26,716 nt of DNA. Source: Elainellaceae cyanobacterium (GTDB lineage: Bacteria > Cyanobacteriota > Cyanobacteriia > CAZCXK01). The stretch is taken from positions 1 to 26,716 of the forward strand of contig JBNPEG010000234.1 in assembly GCA_051117555.1 (NCBI GenBank). Reading direction: 5' to 3'. The position numbers and the translations under genes are program-made. The notes under the pieces are model-generated. The model worked only from the letters and a program-made list of their open reading frames with translations, ran no database searches and was not told the DNA's origin. Positions 7,669-20,399 of this stretch are shown here, piece by piece. Every line of letters begins with the position of its first letter. The first letter of the stretch is position 1.

Positions 7669-10600
7669 CTAGATAAATGCCTGCACAGCACACTTGATTT
7701 GCCCTATGGGTAGTGTCGATAGCAAGATAGACAAAATTTTGATATGTTCTGAAGCGGATAGCCTATTCCATACCTGTCGCCATTGCCTCACCGTCAATTG
7801 TTGAAACATATCATTGAGTTTTTCCAATAGGTGGGGTATCTCAGTTTTGGGTGCAGGTTCATCGGGTCTGTTTAGTATGGCCGTCAGTTGGCTCGTATTT
7901 TGGACAACGCTATCTGGAGCGTGTATCTCAGCCTGGCTGACTCTACCACTAGCGCTATTTGATTCTTTTAATAGCATCAGTAGTAATTTCCAGAATCGAG
8001 ATAAATACTGCTGAGAATACCCTGTTAATTTGGCGATCGCCGTTTGAGTCACTTTTTTATTTTGATCAGTTAGATGGTTCATGGCATGCAGTGCTGCCGC
8101 GACAAAGCGTTCCTGCTTAGTTGAAGCCTCTGGGGTGACATCAGAGGCAGATACGTGGTGGGTGGATAGATCTAACTCAAAGTTGCTCAAAATAACGACC
8201 TGAAGCTGTTCAGATAGGCGTCGATGGGCTCGAAGTCGCCCAATGGCCTGATAAAAATCTGCTTGGATAGCTCGATCAACAAAGGCTTTGAACCCCTGAT
8301 TGTCAAGATCATAGGCTCCTGTTAGAATCGCATATTCAGCCGCCTGATCGATAATGTTTCGGCAGGGAGTCCCTACGAGAATGAGGGTGTTTATCTCGGT
8401 GAAGTCATTAACTCCCCGACTATCGCGCCACCATGCCCCGTCCCCGTGATACTTTTTGAAGTCGATGACTTTGGTAGTTGGGTCGCGTTGCTTATAGTGT
8501 TCAACGAGAATTTTTGTTCGCTGTTGCTGCTGCTTGCCTCTCTGCATGCCCATTCGTCCAAGGTCAGTAACTTGCGTGATGACGAGGTTTTCGGGACGGG
8601 ACATTTCTTGTCTAATTTCTAAGATCTCGTCAGGGGAGCAGCCGAGTTTAAGCGCTAAATCGTCACGGGTTAGCGTTGCATCTAGAAAGATGGTGGCTTT
8701 AGAGGCACCGGCGATCGCCCGATGATGGGTGTCTGGGAGTGCGATCGTCAGTAGTCCTTGTTTGATCGACAGGGCTCCTTGAATTTGTCCTGTTAGGACT
8801 CGAAGTAATGTAGGGAGCCATTGTTTGACGACGGAGTTTTCGGCATGTTCAATGACGCGGTCATCGCCTGCCAAGCTGTGACTCTGCGGGCGATCGCCAG
8901 GATTCGTCTTATCCTGATCTACTTTATTAAGAAATGAAAGATTGGGAACTAAGACGTGCTCAATTGCTGAAATATCTAATGTGCCTAGATTTGGGAGGAA
9001 ATCTACGACTTGAGTATGAGTTAATCCAAATTTGCCGAGATGCATTGATCCGTCTAAATAAGGAAGTAGCGCAGTCAGCAAGGGCTGTATTGTCTCAAAC
9101 TGTTCGGGAGTTTTTAGCAGCGAGGTAATGACTTGTTCTAAATCGTCAAGTGTGACATGGATATCGTGCTTGACTTGAAATGTTTGCCCAGGTTCGTCCC
9201 AGATAGCTACTACAGAATCGTATTGATATTCCATCGGAGCAGGTAGGCTATCGGGGTGAGCTCTAAATTTTGGAGACGCTAGTGCTGACTGCCGCTGACT
9301 GAGAAAGCCATACCCGACGCCTTTAGACTGAGCACATCGGTCTCGCAAAGGGCACGTTCCGCAGATCAGAGATGCGGTATCGGCACCGTCAACATGCTTC
9401 GCACGCAGCGTGCTGATTACGGAGGTGCGGCTACAGTTTGCTGGCGTATCTGGGATTTCTCGTCGGAGGGGTCGTCTCAGACGAATTTGACCGTTTACGG
9501 TGGTTTCACGAATTAACCCGTCATGGCGAGCGTCTAGATCAACCCAGCCATTTTGAATCTTGAGTGTGTCAACGGTTGGATTGCGATGCTGATCTGAGAG
9601 GTAAATAATTTGTCGGACATCGTCCGCTAAATCGAGGGTGGCGTTTCCTGCATCAAAGCTTTTGCCTGTCCCTGTGGTTGATGAGTCTAGGATATATCGA
9701 TACCCGTTGGCGATCGCCCCTTTCCAGGTTTGCAAGCGCATTCCAGGTTGATAGGTTTGAATCGCTAGGGTTTCATCAGCCGACGATGATGGTGAATGGG
9801 CGGATTGGCGCCGTTGTCGTTTTTTCTGTTTTCCCTTTTCTAATCTGAATAGGGTCGTGAGCTGAGTCAGAATCTGTTCAGGATGGCGGGCGATCGCGTC
9901 AAACTCGGCGTCAGTGATGGAGTTAATTGAATCTAAATCAGAAAGTTCATCAATATCGGGATCTGCTTTGGTGAACTGCTTCCACCACATAACCTGGATT
10001 GTGTATCCCCAGCATTTGAGCAATCTCCAGGTAGCGCGGTACTGCCGCAGCACGTGCGGATTGCAGATTGCTCCGGCATCGGGATAGAACTCAACTATTT
10101 TTTGATCAAATTGGCGTGCCGTCTCGTCCAAGATCTGTCGGAGCATTTGCGGGCTATTCGAAAATTGTCCGCCCGCAGCACCGATGGTTACGATTCCTAG
10201 CCGGTGCGCTGTAAGCAGTGGCTTGGGTCCGGTTCCTTCAACAAGGGCGATCGCCTGTCGCTTAGGTGGCTGATTGGGGGAATAGACAGCCAACGGCAGT
10301 TCTCCATTGCCTAAATGGGGAGTCGCCCCGTCTGGATTTGATTTCGTTCTGCTGGTCAGCCAGTAATATTTGGGTGTATTTGGCTCAAGAGCCCGGTTGC
10401 GAACTTGGAACCCGGTGATTCGTTCTTCGGTGTCATAGATGGGGCAGAGATAGCCAGGGAATGGTGTATTGAGCGATCGCCCGTTTGCGCTAATTCCAGC
10501 TAATGAGGACGGAAAGGTTTGCTCCAACGATTGCCATTGCTCAACAGATTTAAATCCCCAGCGATCGATGAGGTCGTCTGTTAATCCCCGTCGATGGAGA

Positions 10601-10986
10601 TCAGCGCGATCATCGGGATGTAGGGTGAGCTGATTGAGAATCGGACGGTATTGGCGATCGCGCTCGTGGGTTGAGAGCGAATCTAGACGATCGTGCTGGG
10701 AGATTTTTGATCTATTTCTCTGCCGCTGGCTCTGTTGCCCGGAGTTACGATTTTGGGCAGTCCGAAGTTTTTGTCTACTCTCCCTATTATTGGCAATAGT
10801 ATTGGCAATCCATTTTCCCCACAGGTCATCTTTTGTTCGCCCAATGAACGTAAACCCGGGCATGGGCTGTGAGGCGTCTGTAACATTCATGCACAGGAGA
10901 GTTTGATCTGTTTCGCGACACTTTCCCGTAGTGTCGCCGCAAATTTGGCATGGATTTCCGCGCCGGGTCGGGGTGAAAATACTCAT
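7669..10986 (-). CDS. Plasmid-type primase/helicase fusion (Zn finger, TOPRIM-like, SF2 helicase, HTH); probable replication protein
   Basis: N-terminal CQIC-x6-C-x9-C; TOPRIM-like 'LVEG', 'YPDAG', 'DPDIDE'; Walker A 'STTGTGKS'; Walker B 'IWDE'; 'LDAT'; 'RGVND'; motif VI 'QAIGRLR'; C-terminal HTH 'TQTAIAKLTGYSQQYLSR'. Strong SD AGGAGGTGA at 10991-10999. Confidence 0.8.
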   Translation of the reverse strand: MSIFTPTRRGNPCQICGDTTGKCRETDQTLLCMNVTDASQPMPGFTFIGRTKDDLWGKWIANTIANNRESRQKLRTAQNRNSGQQSQRQRNRSKISQHDRLDSLSTHERDRQYRPILNQLTLHPDDRADLHRRGLTDDLIDRWGFKSVEQWQSLEQTFPSSLAGISANGRSLNTPFPGYLCPIYDTEERITGFQVRNRALEPNTPKYYWLTSRTKSNPDGATPHLGNGELPLAVYSPNQPPKRQAIALVEGTGPKPLLTAHRLGIVTIGAAGGQFSNSPQMLRQILDETARQFDQKIVEFYPDAGAICNPHVLRQYRATWRLLKCWGYTIQVMWWKQFTKADPDIDELSDLDSINSITDAEFDAIARHPEQILTQLTTLFRLEKGKQKKRQRRQSAHSPSSSADETLAIQTYQPGMRLQTWKGAIANGYRYILDSSTTGTGKSFDAGNATLDLADDVRQIIYLSDQHRNPTVDTLKIQNGWVDLDARHDGLIRETTVNGQIRLRRPLRREIPDTPANCSRTSVISTLRAKHVDGADTASLICGTCPLRDRCAQSKGVGYGFLSQRQSALASPKFRAHPDSLPAPMEYQYDSVVAIWDEPGQTFQVKHDIHVTLDDLEQVITSLLKTPEQFETIQPLLTALLPYLDGSMHLGKFGLTHTQVVDFLPNLGTLDISAIEHVLVPNLSFLNKVDQDKTNPGDRPQSHSLAGDDRVIEHAENSVVKQWLPTLLRVLTGQIQGALSIKQGLLTIALPDTHHRAIAGASKATIFLDATLTRDDLALKLGCSPDEILEIRQEMSRPENLVITQVTDLGRMGMQRGKQQQQRTKILVEHYKQRDPTTKVIDFKKYHGDGAWWRDSRGVNDFTEINTLILVGTPCRNIIDQAAEYAILTGAYDLDNQGFKAFVDRAIQADFYQAIGRLRAHRRLSEQLQVVILSNFELDLSTHHVSASDVTPEASTKQERFVAAALHAMNHLTDQNKKVTQTAIAKLTGYSQQYLSRFWKLLLMLLKESNSASGRVSQAEIHAPDSVVQNTSQLTAILNRPDEPAPKTEIPHLLEKLNDMFQQLTVRQWRQVWNRLSASEHIKILSILLSTLPIGQIKCAVQAFI

Positions 10987-11167
10987 CGGATCACCTCCTG
11001 AGGAGGCTCATCAGCGCATTGCACTGCGACGAAGCATGCTGAGGGGGACAGGATGCCCCACGTCTGTGACGAAATGTCGGGGGTCCTACACGCATATGTT
11101 GAGGAAACGGAAGATAAACGCATCTAGCCCTTATTCTTACTGTGCAAACCAATGCCAGATTTTTACA

Positions 11168-11670
11168 GATCGGTGGACTATTGTGTTTGTGAGCGATCAG
11201 TTTGATCAAACTGATCAGGATGTAGTAAAACAGCTAGGATGCTTGCTGCATAAGGAATTTATTAGCATCGCTGTGAGCTGATCCGGGCATTTTGTGAGAC
11301 GATCCGGGTGTTTCTGTGGGGATATTCGGGGTTTGTTGTAGTAAGCGGAAAATCTTGCTGCATGGGCGATTAAGGCCAATTTCTTAAGTGATTTTTTCTA
11401 CTACAAAGCTGATCTGTAGTAAAAAGTAGTTGTGAGATTTACATGCTAGATCCGAGGATGTTTTGGAAAATCCAGAGATCTAAAGCCTAGGGGTGTAATT
11501 TTGTGAGTCGATCCGGGAATTTGAGTAGTAAACCGTTGTAGTAATGGCACGGTTTAGGCAGTTTGTGAGACGATTCGGGGTTTGTTGTAGTAAGCGAAAA
11601 GTCTTGCTACATAAGCCTTGTGATCATTTCTTAACACGATTTTTGATAGCGCGATCGCGCTGTGTAGTAA
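11168..11670. repeat. Iteron-like direct-repeat cluster; candidate replication origin
   Basis: 16-mer TGTGAGnnGATCCGGG at 11272, 11293 and 11502, with variants at 11315 and 11564. TGTAGTAA at 11221, 11337, 11415, 11537, 11586 and 11663. 40-bp duplication 11324-11363 / 11573-11612 (37/40 identical). Perfect 22-bp palindrome at 11195-11216. 12 GATC sites. Confidence 0.7.
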
Positions 11671-11688
11671 AAGCTGGGAATCACGGCC

Positions 11689-13347
11689 TCACGCGTTGAG
11701 ATCGCCTTGGAGTTTAAGGACTTTTTTAAGACTCGCTTCTATTTCGATAGTTGGTTCTCGTCGTCCCGATTCGATGTGTGAGATGAGTTGTTGAGACACG
11801 CCCAAAAATCCAGCGAGTTTCGCCTGACTCCAGCCTCGACGCTTGCGGGCATCTCGCACGTCTTCGCCGGTTAGGGTTCCTGTGGGTTCAGGCGGTGAGG
11901 CTTTTAATTTGCGTGGCTCATGCCGGGGTGTTTTCTTGCGATCCAGTAGCCCAGGAATGGGGTCGGGGGGAAGAATTCTGAGCTTACTTTCAAGCAAGAT
12001 ATAGATATAGCCCTTGGGTTTCCGGATTTTAGAATCGGGTCTGAGTGATTCGGGGTAGTTGTCATGAAACTCGACGCTCCAGCCCAGTTTGACGAGTGTT
12101 TTAAGGGCTTCATTCCATTGATGGACGAGATCGCGGGCTTTGTGGCGATCGCTTAAGGCTTTTTCGAGTTTGGCATCGTAGCCCACTAAAACGGATTCGA
12201 ATAATGTCTTGACTCGGTAGTCCCCTGATTTATGAATTCGGCTTTCGATCGTGAGATGAATCGCGAGGCGAAGTGCGAGTTCGTTGTGATAGGGGTCAAT
12301 TTTGAGAACGCTTTGAGCTAGATAACCAAACTGGTGCAGTGCTTCTTTTGCCTTGGCGCCCCCTCGATTTAAGAAGCCTTTGGTCCATAGACCGGGCTGG
12401 ACTTGAAGCTCTACTTTGGTGAGCGCTTCAATTTTATCGGAGAGAAGATTTTTTTGTCCTGTTGCGCTGACGCTGATATTCCACATGCGAGAGGTTTGCA
12501 CGGTCACCTGGGTTTTACGCCGATTGGTTTGTCCTTCTTTCCATTCGACTCGCACAAGCAAACAATCTAATGCAAAGGCGCAACTCGCAAGCTCAGATAG
12601 CTTTTGGCTAACCGTAATATCTTTGCGATTGTTCCAGCCTAGATTTTTGATCACATCTTCACCCGATAGGGTAAAACTGCCACTCCAGGGTTCGTTCTGA
12701 TTCATGGCATGGGCTGCCAAAATCAGCTGAAGTTTGACAGTATTGAAGCCAAAATTGTTGATGATTTTTTCTGCCGCATCCCAGGGCAGCATGGTCACAT
12801 CGCCAGGGCTTGAGATGTAATGCTCAATATAGTTTTGGGGGTTACTCTTCGCGATTTTCTGGAAAACGGCAATCCCGTCGCGCTCATACCAAAGGTCGGC
12901 TCGTAGTTGAGATTCGATGGAGCTCATGAAGGGGGCTCCAGTGGGAATAGGCTCGATGTGATTATTGAGAAAGAGCTCTGCTTCTTTGGGGGAGTTGATG
13001 ATACTTTCGTTGACCGCGTCTTCGAGCGCTCTGCTGAGTGAGTTGATGCGATTCTCGACGTTGTCTAAGCCTATTTGAAAGCGATCGCACGCGTCAGGCT
13101 CATCAGAGGTTTGACGGATTGATAAGAAAGTTTCGGTGATGTCGTCTAAAATCTTCCGAGCCGCGTCTAACCGGGCTTGGTTTAATTTGACGTCAGCCGC
13201 TAGTTGGGGCGACACGCCTTTGTCTCGAATCGCATCCAAACACGCTTCCGCCCCTTCGAGCCATTCCAGCAAGCGAAGGGCATCCACATTCCATAACTCT
13301 ATAAATTGATCCCAGTTGGCTGGAATAGAGATGTCAAGAGAATTCAT
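11689..13347 (-). CDS. Rep-like protein (putative tandem winged helix) with C-terminal XRE-family HTH
   Basis: C-terminal 'VRDARKRRGWSQAKLAGFLGVSQQLISHIESGRREP' is a clear XRE HTH. Central 'NELALRLAIHL...YRVKTLFE...WNEALKTLVKLG' resembles WH2 of RepA/Rep_3 initiators (inference). The gene abuts the repeat cluster. Confidence 0.7.
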   Translation of the reverse strand: MNSLDISIPANWDQFIELWNVDALRLLEWLEGAEACLDAIRDKGVSPQLAADVKLNQARLDAARKILDDITETFLSIRQTSDEPDACDRFQIGLDNVENRINSLSRALEDAVNESIINSPKEAELFLNNHIEPIPTGAPFMSSIESQLRADLWYERDGIAVFQKIAKSNPQNYIEHYISSPGDVTMLPWDAAEKIINNFGFNTVKLQLILAAHAMNQNEPWSGSFTLSGEDVIKNLGWNNRKDITVSQKLSELASCAFALDCLLVRVEWKEGQTNRRKTQVTVQTSRMWNISVSATGQKNLLSDKIEALTKVELQVQPGLWTKGFLNRGGAKAKEALHQFGYLAQSVLKIDPYHNELALRLAIHLTIESRIHKSGDYRVKTLFESVLVGYDAKLEKALSDRHKARDLVHQWNEALKTLVKLGWSVEFHDNYPESLRPDSKIRKPKGYIYILLESKLRILPPDPIPGLLDRKKTPRHEPRKLKASPPEPTGTLTGEDVRDARKRRGWSQAKLAGFLGVSQQLISHIESGRREPTIEIEASLKKVLKLQGDLNA

Positions 13348-13542: not shown

Positions 13543-15240
13543 TTAATTGACAACCGAGCAGCGATCGCCCGCCAACCTCACCTCTTGCTGAACGGTCAAG
13601 CCATTTAGGAACGTACGATCTTCGCTCACATGCGGAAACTTGAGCTGCGCTTCGGCAACTCCCCGCCGAATCATCTGCTGCCGGAATTGTTCGAAACTGC
13701 CGGGTGCCAAAATCCTCAAGCGCGGCAGCGGAATCTGGTCGCGTCGTTTGATGGCGTAAAATGCTTGAACGTCTTTGAGGGTGTCATCAAACTGCTGCAA
13801 AAACGCCTCAGGATTGTGAAGCGTTGCTCCGGCAGCAAGCTCAATATTTACCAGATAATGGGACGGAACTGTATCGTCAGACAGCGTGATACAGAAATTT
13901 TCCAGAGAGACGCCAAACTGTTGTTGCAACCGCTGCATCACGCAAACCACGTGATCTTCCGTTGTTTTTTCGGTGGATGATGACATGACGCCCCCACGCC
14001 GATGCCGAAAAATTATCAACGGTGCCTGACCACAAAAACCGTCAATTTCAACGACATCTCCCAGGTCATAGCGATAAAATCCGCTGTAGTTGGTCAACAC
14101 AATTCGGTAGCGATCGCCCACCTTCACCTCCCACGGCAAGAGCGTTTTTGGATGTTCGACAGTCCACTGATCTTCAGGAATGAACTCATAGAAGCCGCTT
14201 TCAATGGCTAGAATCGCGCTGTCTGTATTAAAGTCTCGATGAACGCCTAATACGCCTTCAGCACAAGAATAGGTGCCACCAAAAATCGGCGTGTCGCCGA
14301 AGTATTCTGGAAAGCGTTCAAAATAAAAATTCGACGTGCCGCCTCGTGCGGTAATGAGGAAGGAAAGATTGCGCCAGGCATCTTTGGGAACCAGTCGTCC
14401 GTTTGTTTTGAGATGATGGCGAAGCTGGGCGGCTCGGTTGGGATTTGCTGTCAATCGACGTTCAAGTTTGGCTCGCAACGGTGGATCAATGGCTAACCAA
14501 CTGGCGATCGTTCCCGTTTCTAAATCATGAATCAGGTCGTCGGCATTTTGTTCTAGATAACCACATAGTTGCAGCGCCAGCACTGGAAACGTTGCCCCAA
14601 TGATGCGAAGGTGAGGATTTCTCAGCGCAAATAGTAGGCAAAGATAGTAGCGGGCTAGCGTATCTGATACTTGAAATGCTTCAAACGGATGGGCAAACAC
14701 CTGACGAAAGGCGGCTCCCATAAGGCGCAAATCGCTAGTGCTGACAGGGGCATAGGCAAGACCCGTCGGAGTATGCCCAACGGGATTGACCGAGATAGGA
14801 AACAGCATGTTGCCGAGAGGTCGCCCGTCTCGAATGGCCGCGTCGGCGACAAACCCCATTGCGGTATGGCTGCCGCGTGATAGAAATCGGCGCGATCGCC
14901 CTGTAACGGGAATAAATTTTTTCTGTCCGGTTGATCCGCTGCTGATATTGACATAGATAAGCGGATCGGGCAGCAGAATATTGGTCTCTCCATTCACCAT
15001 GCGCTGCGTATAGGGTGCAAAGGCGCTATACGGCTGCACGGGAATCCGTTCTCGAAATTGCTCAATTGTGTGAACATCAGATAGCCCGTGGCGACGGCTA
15101 AATTCGGTATGTCGATGCGCCTTGAGCAATGCGTGTAGAAATTTTGCTTGTACCTCGTCGGTACGATGCGTCTTGCGAATAAAACCTGCTTTAGACCGTC
15201 GAACGATTGCAGCTAAAACTGATAGAACCGGATTTGCCAT
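13543..15240 (-). CDS. GH3-family acyl-adenylate-forming amido synthetase
   Basis: GH3 motifs 'SSGSTGQKKFIP', 'YSCAEG', 'GFYEFIP' and 'GFYRYDLGDVV'. Start at ATG 15240. Confidence 0.9.
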   Translation of the reverse strand: MANPVLSVLAAIVRRSKAGFIRKTHRTDEVQAKFLHALLKAHRHTEFSRRHGLSDVHTIEQFRERIPVQPYSAFAPYTQRMVNGETNILLPDPLIYVNISSGSTGQKKFIPVTGRSRRFLSRGSHTAMGFVADAAIRDGRPLGNMLFPISVNPVGHTPTGLAYAPVSTSDLRLMGAAFRQVFAHPFEAFQVSDTLARYYLCLLFALRNPHLRIIGATFPVLALQLCGYLEQNADDLIHDLETGTIASWLAIDPPLRAKLERRLTANPNRAAQLRHHLKTNGRLVPKDAWRNLSFLITARGGTSNFYFERFPEYFGDTPIFGGTYSCAEGVLGVHRDFNTDSAILAIESGFYEFIPEDQWTVEHPKTLLPWEVKVGDRYRIVLTNYSGFYRYDLGDVVEIDGFCGQAPLIIFRHRRGGVMSSSTEKTTEDHVVCVMQRLQQQFGVSLENFCITLSDDTVPSHYLVNIELAAGATLHNPEAFLQQFDDTLKDVQAFYAIKRRDQIPLPRLRILAPGSFEQFRQQMIRRGVAEAQLKFPHVSEDRTFLNGLTVQQEVRLAGDRCSVVN

Positions 15241-15352
15241 GAATGTCCCTGTAATATCCCTCACTTGAATATGTCAACCATCAACCTCGATGATGGAGAA
15301 CACTGAATTATCCTGCGATCGCCCTGACAATGCAAAGTTAGATGTGGCACTT

Positions 15353-15391
15353 TATTAAGTGTCAATATTAAGTGTCAATATTAGGTGTCAA
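15353..15391 (-). repeat. 3 x 13-bp tandem repeat containing TTGACA; possible promoter for the GH3 gene
   Basis: Minus strand reads TTGACACCTAATA TTGACACTTAATA TTGACACTTAATA. The first unit contains the cysteate synthase stop codon. Confidence 0.8.
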
Positions 15392-16695
15392 CAGCCCTGT
15401 GTCGCAATTGGCGAACGGGTGTCCCAGGTTTCAATTCGCCTCGCTACGATGTCGGGTGTGATTTCGTTTGGAGTAAACAAGATATGAGGCTTCAAGGTCT
15501 GCAAAGGATAGTCGCGCTGTATTCGCTTGATGCCGCCACTGGTAATGTTGAGCAACACACAATCGCCCTTGGGAATGGCACCCGTGGCGATCGCCTTGAT
15601 GAGCGCAGCCGTTGCAACTCCTGAGGCGGGGCTGATATCAATGCCTTCTAAGGTTTCAAAGAGCTGCCGAGCGCGATCGGATGCTGCGTTCGTGATGGCG
15701 TACATCTCGCCGTTGGTTTCGACTAGAGCGTCGTAGAGTCCTCCGGCTAGAGAATACGCAGGTTGGCGGTTGGTGAGCACCTGAGCCGAAACCTGGCTAA
15801 TGTGAGATTTGGCGATCGCTTCATCCATCACCGGAATCTCAGGACTGCGACCTGCCCACGCATCGACCATCGGCGTAAACGGTGCATTTTGGGCCAGGTG
15901 GAGTTTCATGCGATGCGTGCCAAATCGCCCATCTGCTAGCAAGCGCAGATGGGCTTCCCAGGCTGAAATGCCGCCCGTTCCTGACCCTACCGCTTGAACG
16001 TAGTGATCGGGAATGCGCCCCAGAGTCGCTGCTGCATCAACCACGGTCACCCCCATGCCGTCCCGTCGAGCAACATTCGCAGCTCCGCCTTCGGGAAAGA
16101 AGCCATCCATTTCGCTGATTAATCGTGCCAGGGCGATCGCATCTGAATAATCGCCATTACCACCGACCCCGATCAAGCAGACGCTGGGATGAAAGGCATG
16201 GGTTGACCAGATGGCAGATAGGTTTCGCTCTGGAATGACCAAGCAGAGGGGCAGTTGTAACGAAGAACAAACATTGGCAAATGCTCTGCCTGTGTTGCCA
16301 GCCGAGGCAATCACCAAGGTTTGTGAATGATGTGCCGGAATTCTAGCGAGAACAGGGGGCGCTTCTAATTCTTTGAATGAGCAGGTGTTCAGGGCTGCTC
16401 CTCGTTCAGGACAATACCCGTTGAAGCTAACGAACAATTGGTCGAGTCCCAAATATGCTGCAAGCTTCTCGCTTTGATACGTGATGGGTTTTCCAGGGAT
16501 GTCTAACCAGCGCTCGACGGGCAGCCAGTCGGCATAGCGAAACACACCTGGCAGATCAGGATTGACGCTAAGCGTTTGAGCAGAATAGACGGCACGCAGC
16601 AGAGACGGGGCATGGGGGCAATCGCACTGGAGACGGAAGGGATCAGGGGTATACTCTGCTCCGCACACGGCACAGCGAAGAATATGATTGGGCAT
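15388..16695 (-). CDS. Cysteate synthase (PLP-dependent, threonine-synthase-like)
   Basis: 'TCSFKELEA' (PLP lysine), 'ASAGNTGRAF', 'EGGAANVARRDGMG', 'PDHYVQAVGSGTGGISAWEA', 'LTNRQPAYS' and 'LLNITSGG' match the cysteate synthase subfamily rather than ThrC. N-terminal CxxC Zn knuckle. Confidence 0.85.
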   Translation of the reverse strand: MPNHILRCAVCGAEYTPDPFRLQCDCPHAPSLLRAVYSAQTLSVNPDLPGVFRYADWLPVERWLDIPGKPITYQSEKLAAYLGLDQLFVSFNGYCPERGAALNTCSFKELEAPPVLARIPAHHSQTLVIASAGNTGRAFANVCSSLQLPLCLVIPERNLSAIWSTHAFHPSVCLIGVGGNGDYSDAIALARLISEMDGFFPEGGAANVARRDGMGVTVVDAAATLGRIPDHYVQAVGSGTGGISAWEAHLRLLADGRFGTHRMKLHLAQNAPFTPMVDAWAGRSPEIPVMDEAIAKSHISQVSAQVLTNRQPAYSLAGGLYDALVETNGEMYAITNAASDRARQLFETLEGIDISPASGVATAALIKAIATGAIPKGDCVLLNITSGGIKRIQRDYPLQTLKPHILFTPNEITPDIVARRIETWDTRSPIATQGC

Positions 16696-19602: not shown

Positions 19603-19688
19603 AGCTAACGGTGAAGTGCAGCGGCGACAGGCAACCTTTGCAACTCCACCAAGATCTCTCAACTGACCGCTTCATAGACTTGTTATCT
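19603..19688 (-). other. attC-like recombination site C (86 bp)
   Basis: Minus strand: R'' AGATAAC (contains the TAA stop of the ComB-like gene), AAGTC, L'' TATGAAGC ... L' GCTGCAC, TTCACC, R' GTTAGCT. Confidence 0.7.
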
Positions 19689-20399
19689 TGCGTGATTTGC
19701 GTAGGCTCCATTGACTAACGTAGGAACACAATCACTAACGTTCATCTCTGATGCTAAATCAACATCTTGCTCAAAGCCTCTCTCAATCAGCTCTCGACCA
19801 GAACCACATTGCCTTATCAATTGTTCTAAGGATTGGCGAAGACCTTGATATGCTTCGCTTGCTAATTGTGCTTCTGGGGACAATTTCCCTCGAAGATAGC
19901 TGATCACCGCACCTGCCCCAATAAAATCTTCAAACGAAGGGCGGAGGCTGCCGTCATGCCACTTCTCCCCGGCTGGAATCACGGCAATGCGCTGCCCATA
20001 ATTCATCGCAGCTAAAGCAACGACTCTACAATTTCTCAAACATCCGGTTAAAGTTGCAGTTCCCGCTGCTGCCAGACTTAGAGACGACCCATTGGGAGAG
20101 GGTAGGACTAAGCGAGTTCCTAAAGCAATGGCAAGCAATGAAGCTGGAGACAATGAATAACGGTTATCACCACGCTTCTCTGCAACTTCCGCGTCAACAG
20201 ATTGAGCAAACGCTTTAGTAGATTCATCTTTCCAATGATAGGGAAAAACGATCGCACCTCGGCTGTTAGCAACATCAATGCAAGTTGAAAATGAGAGAAC
20301 GTCAATAATGATAACTACATCACTGATCGTAGCTAACTGCAAAATCCCCTTCTCACCCCACTCACATCGCACCTCAAAATCAGCCTGATCGAAGTTCAT
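19683..20399 (-). CDS. 2-phosphosulfolactate phosphatase (ComB) family protein
   Basis: 'IIIDVLSFST', 'SLSPASL', 'LPSPNGS', 'IPAGEKW', 'RPSFEDFIGAGAVI', 'SGRELIERGFEQDV'. Confidence 0.85.
   Translation of the reverse strand: MNFDQADFEVRCEWGEKGILQLATISDVVIIIDVLSFSTCIDVANSRGAIVFPYHWKDESTKAFAQSVDAEVAEKRGDNRYSLSPASLLAIALGTRLVLPSPNGSSLSLAAAGTATLTGCLRNCRVVALAAMNYGQRIAVIPAGEKWHDGSLRPSFEDFIGAGAVISYLRGKLSPEAQLASEAYQGLRQSLEQLIRQCGSGRELIERGFEQDVDLASEMNVSDCVPTLVNGAYANHAR

Follow-up and report, generated by a model that had tools for sequence, protein, structure and literature searches.

A 26,716-nt stretch of the genome of an Elainellaceae cyanobacterium (GenBank assembly GCA_051117555.1, contig JBNPEG010000234.1, positions 1 to 26,716 of the forward strand; the window) carries a cysteate synthase gene followed on the minus strand by a gene for a GH3-family acyl-acid amido synthetase, and we find that this pairing is a conserved, ordered two-gene cassette, cyanobacteria-specific within our sample and recurring far beyond chance. 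From the family identities of the two enzymes and the genes that accompany their homologues, we propose that the synthase supplies cysteate and that GH3, at the expense of ATP, couples it to a carboxylic acid, which is most likely fatty, to give an N-acyl-cysteate, a proposal to which we would give about even chances. A sequence-only reading of the window had pointed to the two co-oriented genes, with the synthase first, and had suggested that GH3 conjugates cysteate or derived taurine to a fatty or aromatic acid. The listing of open reading frames (ORFs) confirmed two co-oriented minus-strand ORFs with outer coordinates 13543 and 16695, the synthase being the first in the direction of transcription.

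The synthase gene (15388..16695, minus strand) encodes a protein of 435 aa that reached 514.6 bits with the NCBIfam equivalog TIGR03844 'cysteate synthase' (curated cut-off 324.9) and therefore falls within this family; threonine synthase models gave at most 70 bits and PF00291 102 bits. Among 14 control genomes, Methanosarcina acetivorans was the sole one over the TIGR03844 cut-off. Alignment with the solved chain 9k3c_A 'Cysteate synthase' (E 3.3e-125) covered query residues 4-419 and chain residues 9-424 and placed the pyridoxal phosphate (PLP)-binding lysine of the SFKE stretch (K108) in register, which supports membership as well. No paper on the solved structures 9k3c and 9k3o was found in the literature searched. 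Eleven cyanobacterial homologues agree without exception at K108, in the S131-T135 loop, and at R210/R211 and G237-G239. The window protein is a predicted PLP-dependent enzyme of the threonine-synthase fold. The N-terminal residues C8, C11, C24 and H28 are likewise invariant in all 11 aligned cyanobacterial synthases, divergent ones included, and may form a small metal-binding knuckle. Cysteate synthases convert O-phospho-L-serine and sulfite to L-cysteate and phosphate, and the family reportedly arose from threonine synthase.

The GH3 gene was listed as a minus-strand ORF at 13543-15264, which would give 573 aa if its GTG start were used. Two aligned congeners keep the ATG at 15240 together with a purine-rich stretch ahead of it but not the GTG at 15264; the GH3 gene therefore spans 13543..15240 and encodes 565 aa, and the gap to the synthase is 147 bp, as the sequence-only reading had given it (123 bp with the GTG start). 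Three GH3 domains together cover residues 28-550, each over its cut-off of 23.6 bits (PF03321, 260.7; PF23571, 85.9; PF23572, 75.3 bits). The closest solved relatives are plant enzymes, with 4b2g at E 1.5e-40 and JAR1 (4epl) at E 2.8e-39, and the plant relatives as a group (JAR1, GH3.5/3.6, GH3.12, VvGH3-1) match at E 1e-40 to 1e-29. The stretches ISSG-STGQKK, TYSCAEG and YRYDLGD align with SSGtSAGERK, MYASSEC and YRYRVGD of VvGH3-1; these correspond to the SSGT-type loop, the YxxSE-type and the YRxGD-type motifs, which we take to be the motifs that bind the nucleotide in the GH3 adenylating site, and place the protein in the family by motif also. These alignments show, for both enzymes of the pair, the family identity and predicted catalytic stretches that are intact. 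With the OlsH equivalog NF052613 the window GH3 scored 102.1 bits at a cut-off of 620 and is thus no member of that family, yet it may work like OlsH, the GH3-type enzyme of the planctomycete Singulisphaera acidiphila that is reported to N-acylate ornithine with ATP and a free fatty acid (PMC12493201).

We searched 401 genomes from the class of this cyanobacterium with TIGR03844, taking E <= 1e-60 as a match; the sample is a draw from a larger group, and related genomes in it are non-independent observations. The synthase was present in 27 genomes, the one studied here included, in 26 over the TIGR03844 cut-off and in the 27th as a match cut by the contig end. A search with the window GH3 protein in the 26 further synthase-bearing genomes revealed a GH3 gene adjoining the synthase on the same contig in every one. 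In 25 the synthase precedes GH3 in the same orientation, and in one (G262) the two genes diverge. The co-oriented pairs include that of G071, where only the first 81 matched GH3 residues precede the contig end, and in three of the 25 one gene intervenes between synthase and GH3. For the 20 pairs with both ORFs called, the gaps, which depend on ORF starts set by a simple longest-ORF rule, were -13 to 65 nt (8 pairs), 123-214 nt (8), 608-976 nt (3) and 380 nt (the divergent pair). The synteny predicted across cyanobacteria is thus borne out in all 26 other genomes, with several GH3 lineages and gaps typically from -13 to about 200 nt, and an adjacency unique to this genome is excluded. All-against-all clustering of the ORFs around the loci found no third gene conserved across linked loci, and the flank upstream of the synthase is rearranged even within the genus. 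Among the matches listed, the pair occurs in records that carry the labels Leptolyngbyaceae, Elainellaceae, Coleofasciculaceae and 'Synechococcales'. In one linked locus (L124, 4985-6662) the GH3 frame is split into three pieces; since the title of a named, sequence-identical record gives an assembly coverage of about 2.6x, a pseudogene and an error of sequencing are equally likely.

A wider scan used the alignment of the 11 cyanobacterial synthases as query against one genome per species, and the best 80 of 576 confirmed loci were inspected for GH3 within 4 kb by means of a GH3 profile and six-frame ORFs. Among these 80, GH3 was detected at none of the 70 non-cyanobacterial loci, which include Bacteroidota, Spirochaetota, Aminicenantes and Methanosarcinales, and at five of the ten cyanobacterial ones, four of the five being sequence-identical to loci already counted. 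This leads to 33 distinct cyanobacterial synthase loci overall, 28 with GH3 adjacent and five without. Three of the GH3-less loci (L136, L140 and L141, two labelled Moorena sp. and one marine cyanobacterium) have as neighbours of the synthase a group II PLP decarboxylase (PF00282), TauD-methyltransferase fusions, further methyltransferases and an opine (octopine-type) dehydrogenase, which looks like a candidate route to taurine derivatives such as N-methylated taurine or tauropine-like solutes.

Quick IQ-TREE trees (LG+G4) were calculated for both proteins. In the GH3 tree of 110 rows (24 scored linked GH3s, the G071 fragment, 81 unlinked GH3s and four distant GH3s as outgroup), the window GH3 falls into a clade of 18 rows, all of them linked when the G071 fragment is counted (SH-aLRT 99), and the other seven linked GH3s stand in four other places. 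A single clade of all 25 linked GH3s, a group chosen by adjacency prior to any look at the tree, is rejected by the approximately unbiased (AU) test (log-likelihood difference 339, p 0.0004). The pairing was therefore either assembled repeatedly or is ancestral, with the synthase lost by most paralogs, and both histories argue for a functional tie. The synthase tree of 106 rows (L120 was omitted as its fragment is too short) has 33 rows in its main cyanobacterial clade (SH-aLRT 100) and a second cyanobacterial group of L041, L042 and L044 beside Bacteroidota and Spirochaetota sequences (SH-aLRT 96). Two separate acquisitions of the synthase by cyanobacteria are not claimed, as a single clade is not rejected by the AU test (p 0.274). 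Some subgroups are common to the two trees, among them L048 with G071 and L050/L051, L034 with L035/L119, and L045-L047, and this fits a synthase and a GH3 that travelled together.

The genes beside the linked pairs bear on what the pair may make. In two genomes (L041, L042) the synthase, a DedA/VTT protein, GH3 and a PF00282 PLP decarboxylase are tightly packed on one strand, and the decarboxylase would convert cysteate to taurine. In L044 an Asp/Glu-type racemase is encoded between synthase and GH3; its best NCBIfam family is CuyB, a cysteate racemase, but with 127.9 bits it stays short of the cut-off of 190. The same locus has an alpha-oxoamine synthase 2.7 kb from GH3 and a Rieske protein whose best family is 4beta-methylsterol monooxygenase. 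DedA/VTT proteins occur in three linked loci, with the undecaprenyl-phosphate transporter UptA as best curated family, below its cut-off. In L046 a PAP2 gene precedes the synthase by 12 nt; in L037 a fatty-acid hydroxylase is encoded 93 nt upstream on the same strand (best family OlsE, 114 bits, cut-off 475), and another fatty-acid hydroxylase stands beside the pair in L033, a fatty-acid desaturase in L039 and GT2 and GT21 glycosyltransferases in L042. Transporters of the major facilitator superfamily (MFS; L035/L119, L043, L044) or the EamA family (L035/L119, L038) were found in five linked loci. L040 has a TauE/SafE permease beside the pair and, after GH3, a non-ribosomal peptide synthetase (NRPS) gene of condensation, adenylation, thiolation and thioesterase (C-A-T-TE) type. 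No aromatic-acid pathway gene recurs beside the pairs.

GH3 paralogs that are not linked to a synthase were evaluated at about 80 loci. Most frequent are MFS exporters, of which 26 loci have 28 genes, for the most part immediately after GH3 and convergent with it; one MFS protein showed a weak best-type match to the siderophore exporter BcbE (74 bits). An oxygenase of PF05118 is present in 18 loci, in all of them as the next gene downstream of GH3 and on its strand, with a gap of <=105 nt in 13. Among curated families it matches best OlsC, the hydroxylase of ornithine lipids (254-269 bits at a cut-off of 450). Further neighbours are Rieske oxygenases (11 loci), fatty-acid hydroxylases (10), Mpo1-like proteins (10), amidohydrolases (9), cupin/JmjC proteins (8) and alpha-oxoamine synthases (5). 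A review describes OlsC and OlsD as LpxO homologues and OlsE as a di-iron fatty-acyl hydroxylase (PMC12971839). The enzymes accompanying cyanobacterial GH3s thus have their closest curated relatives in families that modify ornithine lipids, and this is the main, indirect reason why we favour a fatty acid as the acid used by GH3.

The second GH3 of the genome studied here, 58% identical to that of the window, lies on another contig (L216, 6497-13840) together with an alpha-oxoamine synthase (BioF/serine-palmitoyltransferase-like), a Rieske protein (best family 4beta-methylsterol monooxygenase), an MFS transporter and an OlsC-like hydroxylase. This paralog scored 88.1 bits with the OlsH model NF052613, the alpha-oxoamine synthase is 77% identical to that of L044, and the whole looks like a separate cassette for an N-acyl or sphingoid-type lipid. 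Two further architectures were observed: a GH3 fused to a C-terminal pentapeptide-repeat domain (L106, 3971-6223, plus strand, 750 aa) and, once, a GH3 that forms part of an NRPS module together with condensation, adenylation and carrier domains (P0003, 1527 aa). In the literature searched, the papers listed on GH3 amido synthetases mostly treat plant hormones, apart from two on ornithine lipids and a few more outside plants, and none of those listed assigns a function to a cyanobacterial GH3; the OlsH paper includes two cyanobacterial GH3 sequences in its tree, with no function assigned to them (PMC12493201).

Combining these observations, the proposed pathway would start with the synthesis of L-cysteate from O-phospho-L-serine and sulfite, a chemistry assumed from the family; a sulfate-assimilating cyanobacterium has both substrates at its disposal. 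GH3 would then adenylate a carboxylic acid with ATP and use the adenylate to acylate cysteate at its alpha-amino group. The expected product is an N-acyl-cysteate, a sulfonated lipoamino acid or aminolipid, formed as by OlsH without an N-acyltransferase using acyl carrier protein or coenzyme A thioesters. Lineages with extra genes would modify the head group first, the decarboxylase leading via taurine to N-acyl-taurine and the racemase to D-cysteate. In the genome studied here the pair stands alone, and GH3 could be under a promoter within the spacer or share a transcript with the synthase. Of the options put forward in the sequence-only reading, derived taurine as the amine gains support from the synthase - DedA - GH3 - PLP decarboxylase operon of two genomes, and the fatty acid gains indirect support from the lipid-type accessory genes and the lipid-type cassettes around GH3 paralogs. 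The loci conserve no further acyltransferase, and a surfactant-like product with one chain is therefore just as likely as a genuine lipid of the bilayer; export of the product is conceivable.

More tentatively, and with somewhat less than even expectation, we suggest a new cyanobacterial class of sulfonated lipoamino acids or aminolipids, comprising N-acyl-cysteate with N-acyl-taurine and D-cysteate variants and made by a minimal ATP-driven pathway of two enzymes. GH3 would be the core of modular cassettes. The cassette types seen are cysteate synthase followed by GH3, GH3 followed by the OlsC-like oxygenase, GH3 next to a fatty-acid hydroxylase or Mpo1-like gene, and GH3 next to alpha-oxoamine synthase and Rieske genes. 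An enzyme for amine supply or tailoring, a GH3 and an exporter would in such a modular form add up to a so far hidden range of N-acyl amino compounds. Since cysteate is isosteric with aspartate and linked and unlinked GH3s show few and conservative differences, the analogues with aspartate may be products of the unlinked paralogs.

Several observations weigh against N-acyl-cysteate as the product. GH3 (E <= 1e-120) was found in 114 of the 401 genomes compared with 27 for the synthase, so that most GH3s use another amine, and the 18 linked GH3s of the main clade differ from the 81 unlinked ones at just six positions, all conservative (T>S, G>A, S>C, I>L, T>S, S>F) and with no charge gained or changed; there is thus no sequence sign of a pocket adapted to a sulfonate. 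Five cyanobacterial synthase loci among the best 80 of 576 have no GH3 nearby, three of the genomes yielding no GH3 with the query used and two having an unlinked one, which means that cysteate has other uses in the phylum. The accessory families are sporadic, each in one to five linked loci and a minority overall, and family scans of the window proteins found no lipid or export accessory gene beside its own pair. A second acyltransferase of the OlsI or OlsA type is not conserved near the pairs, and a two-tailed membrane lipid is therefore not indicated. In addition, the promoter-like hexamers of the 147-bp spacer leave room for separate transcription of GH3, no synthase-GH3 fusion was present among proteins of 1004-2865 aa, where the NRPS fusion was the one GH3 relative, which is weak evidence, and the texts searched report no sulfonated amide lipid from cyanobacteria.

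If cysteate or taurine is the amine, the acid could also be aromatic or another small carboxylate, and the conjugate a soluble, exported signal, allelochemical or chelator. We consider this unlikely, though by no means far-fetched, as the characterised plant GH3s act on jasmonate, auxins and benzoates, MFS genes stand convergent beside many cyanobacterial GH3s, MFS or EamA genes lie by five linked pairs, one MFS has the weak BcbE match and no lipid gene adjoins the window pair. The recurring neighbours of GH3 are lipid-acting, however (OlsC/LpxO-like, OlsE-like, Mpo1-like, DedA, PAP2 and alpha-oxoamine synthase), no aromatic-acid pathway gene is recurrent, and the sole characterised bacterial GH3, OlsH, is reported to take fatty acids. 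It is improbable that the two enzymes share no pathway at all, with the synthase feeding free sulfonates (taurine-type osmolytes or sulfur storage), GH3 conjugating an ordinary amino acid, and an adjacency that would stem from common regulation or joint transfer. Such independence would agree with the three GH3-less genomes that combine the synthase with decarboxylase, methyltransferases and opine dehydrogenase, with GH3 being far commoner than the synthase and with a spacer that could hold a separate promoter. Against it speak an adjacency in 26 of 26 genomes with a set order and often short or overlapping gaps, a pairing that recurs with different GH3 lineages and unrelated flanks, and head-group-modifying genes that sit between or directly after the two genes.

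Two alternatives concern the chemistry itself. The cyanobacterial 'cysteate synthase' might take another nucleophile or substrate and make a different beta-substituted alanine, which GH3 would then conjugate. Here the derivation of the family from threonine synthase, as indicated by the title of Graham et al. (2009), could be invoked together with the invariant N-terminal Cys/His set of the cyanobacterial synthases, and no assayed cyanobacterial member was found in the literature searched; a score far over the curated equivalog cut-off, the full-length alignment to a solved cysteate synthase and neighbours that suit cysteate (CuyB-like racemase, group II decarboxylase, TauE and, at GH3-less loci, TauD-methyltransferase fusions) make it quite improbable. 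The roles could also be reversed, with GH3 adenylating the carboxyl group of cysteate and joining it to another amine to yield a cysteoyl amide or peptide. GH3 does belong to the adenylate-forming superfamily, one GH3 domain is part of an NRPS module (P0003) and the linked locus L040 has the C-A-T-TE gene downstream. As the characterised GH3s, those of plants and OlsH, activate a carboxylic acid that is not an amino acid and use the amino acid as nucleophile, and as the taurine of the decarboxylase variant has no carboxyl group to adenylate, we hold this reversal to be the least probable of all.

The spacer between the two genes of the window (15241..15387, minus strand) is of interest for the expression of GH3. 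Tandem Repeats Finder detected at 15353-15391 a tandem array of three 13-nt units, TTGACACTTAATA on the coding strand (minus strand; period 13, 3.0 copies, 96% matches), the first of which overlaps the stop codon of the cysteate synthase. The congener G001 has one copy of the unit; in the congener G002 the whole spacer (about 125 nt) is missing, and synthase and GH3 nearly abut. Since every unit contains a TTGACA hexamer, the copy number of the repeat could alter promoter activity ahead of GH3. A promoter and terminator scan gave three promoter-like matches on the minus strand inside the spacer and no terminator-like site there; as the regional promoter and terminator counts are not above those of shuffled sequences, the scan is uninformative on co-transcription.

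On its downstream side the pair is followed by a 552-aa protein with a C-terminal HTH_3 domain, and upstream lies a divergent dihydroorotase gene. The 552-aa protein (no other domain matched) and a 1105-aa protein with no Pfam family above threshold are encoded after GH3 at 7669-13347 (minus strand), are kept beside the pair within the genus only and may be lineage-specific regulators. The window also contains at 19683-20399 (minus strand) a second, divergent gene of the 2-phosphosulfolactate phosphatase family (ComB-like, PF04029, 80 bits); the usual cyanobacterial copy (280 bits) is on another contig of the same genome. PF04029 was matched in 40 of 41 relatives, with an extra low-scoring full-length match in one other genome (G014) and with double rows in G010 and G015 that each represent one gene split in two. 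The only homologue of the ComB-like gene among the examined loci is about 3 kb from an unlinked GH3 (L073). We dropped this gene as a part of the pathway because it is not conserved beside the pairs.

Cyanobacterial membrane lipids are usually described as monogalactosyl- and digalactosyldiacylglycerol (MGDG, DGDG), sulfoquinovosyldiacylglycerol (SQDG) and phosphatidylglycerol (PG). Should the proposal be true, mostly filamentous and widespread cyanobacteria would make a second sulfur-containing amphiphile besides SQDG, by a route otherwise known from one planctomycete enzyme, OlsH. It would be the first function for any cyanobacterial GH3 and a third fate of cysteate besides coenzyme M and capnine, and it would offer a simple two-gene cassette for sulfonated surfactant-like amides. 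Papers on 'cysteate synthase' in the literature searched have methanogens, coenzyme M and Bacteroidota sulfonolipids among their topics; together with cyanobacteria the enzyme name turned up there in a reference list alone, and a link between cysteate synthase and GH3 was not found in that literature.

Compared with known systems, the type II (phosphoserine) coenzyme M pathway of Methanosarcinales (cysteate synthase and ComDE) has the same first enzyme family. The alpha subunit of sulfopyruvate decarboxylase (TIGR03845) had no match in the genome studied here, which is 100% complete by markers, and matched in the controls; ComA (PF02679) had no match in it either. With both missing, cysteate is not routed to coenzyme M in this genome, and we rejected that route. 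In the capnine pathway of Bacteroidota, the genes encode the cysteate synthase CapA, the cysteate-C-fatty-acyltransferase CapB/SulA and the reductase CapC. The likeness is that the same enzyme family makes cysteate for a lipid, with Bacteroidota homologues 45-50% identical to the window protein among the matches listed; capnine is formed by an alpha-oxoamine synthase in a C-C condensation, whereas the cyanobacterial partner is the amide-forming GH3. No alpha-oxoamine synthase is encoded in the window and none is conserved across linked loci, the one near a pair being that of L044; the alpha-oxoamine synthase of the genome studied here belongs to the cassette of the second GH3 on the other contig. 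The plant GH3s (JAR1, GH3.5/3.6, GH3.12, VvGH3-1) share the three-domain fold family and the aligned nucleotide-binding stretches but are distant (143 bits over about 520 residues), and they conjugate hormones to proteinogenic amino acids with no paired gene for amino-acid synthesis.

Another system is the sulfur-containing aminolipid (SAL) of marine roseobacters, which has a cysteinolic acid head group, an N-acylated C3 aminosulfonate (PMC8319176; PMC11631085). Both would use an N-acylated C3 aminosulfonate as a bacterial lipid head group; SAL differs in its head group, cysteinolic acid in another phylum instead of the predicted cysteate, and in its two chains (acyloxyacyl), which are completed by SalA, whereas no SalA- or OlsA-type gene is conserved beside the cyanobacterial pair. 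The aminolipid review names ornithine, glutamine, glycine, lysine and cysteinolic acid as head groups, does not contain 'cysteate', 'taurine' or 'cyanobacteri', and states that the gene for the N-acylation step of SAL is not yet identified (PMC11631085). As a speculation, GH3-type ligases could perform N-acylation in other sulfonate-headed aminolipids such as SAL. A precedent is the OlsH/OlsI system, with which the cassette would share a bacterial GH3-type ATP-dependent N-acylation of an amino acid and to which the OlsC-like genes after cyanobacterial GH3 paralogs and the OlsE-like gene before one linked pair are further parallels. It differs in that the partner of GH3 is an amino-acid-supplying enzyme and not the O-acyltransferase OlsI, in that the window GH3 is no OlsH orthologue, and in a predicted head group that is a sulfonate amino acid and not ornithine. 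The cassette thus appears to combine two known kinds of pathway, GH3-dependent N-acyl amino acid synthesis and cysteate-based sulfonolipid synthesis, to give a product that we predict to be an N-acylated sulfonate amino acid.

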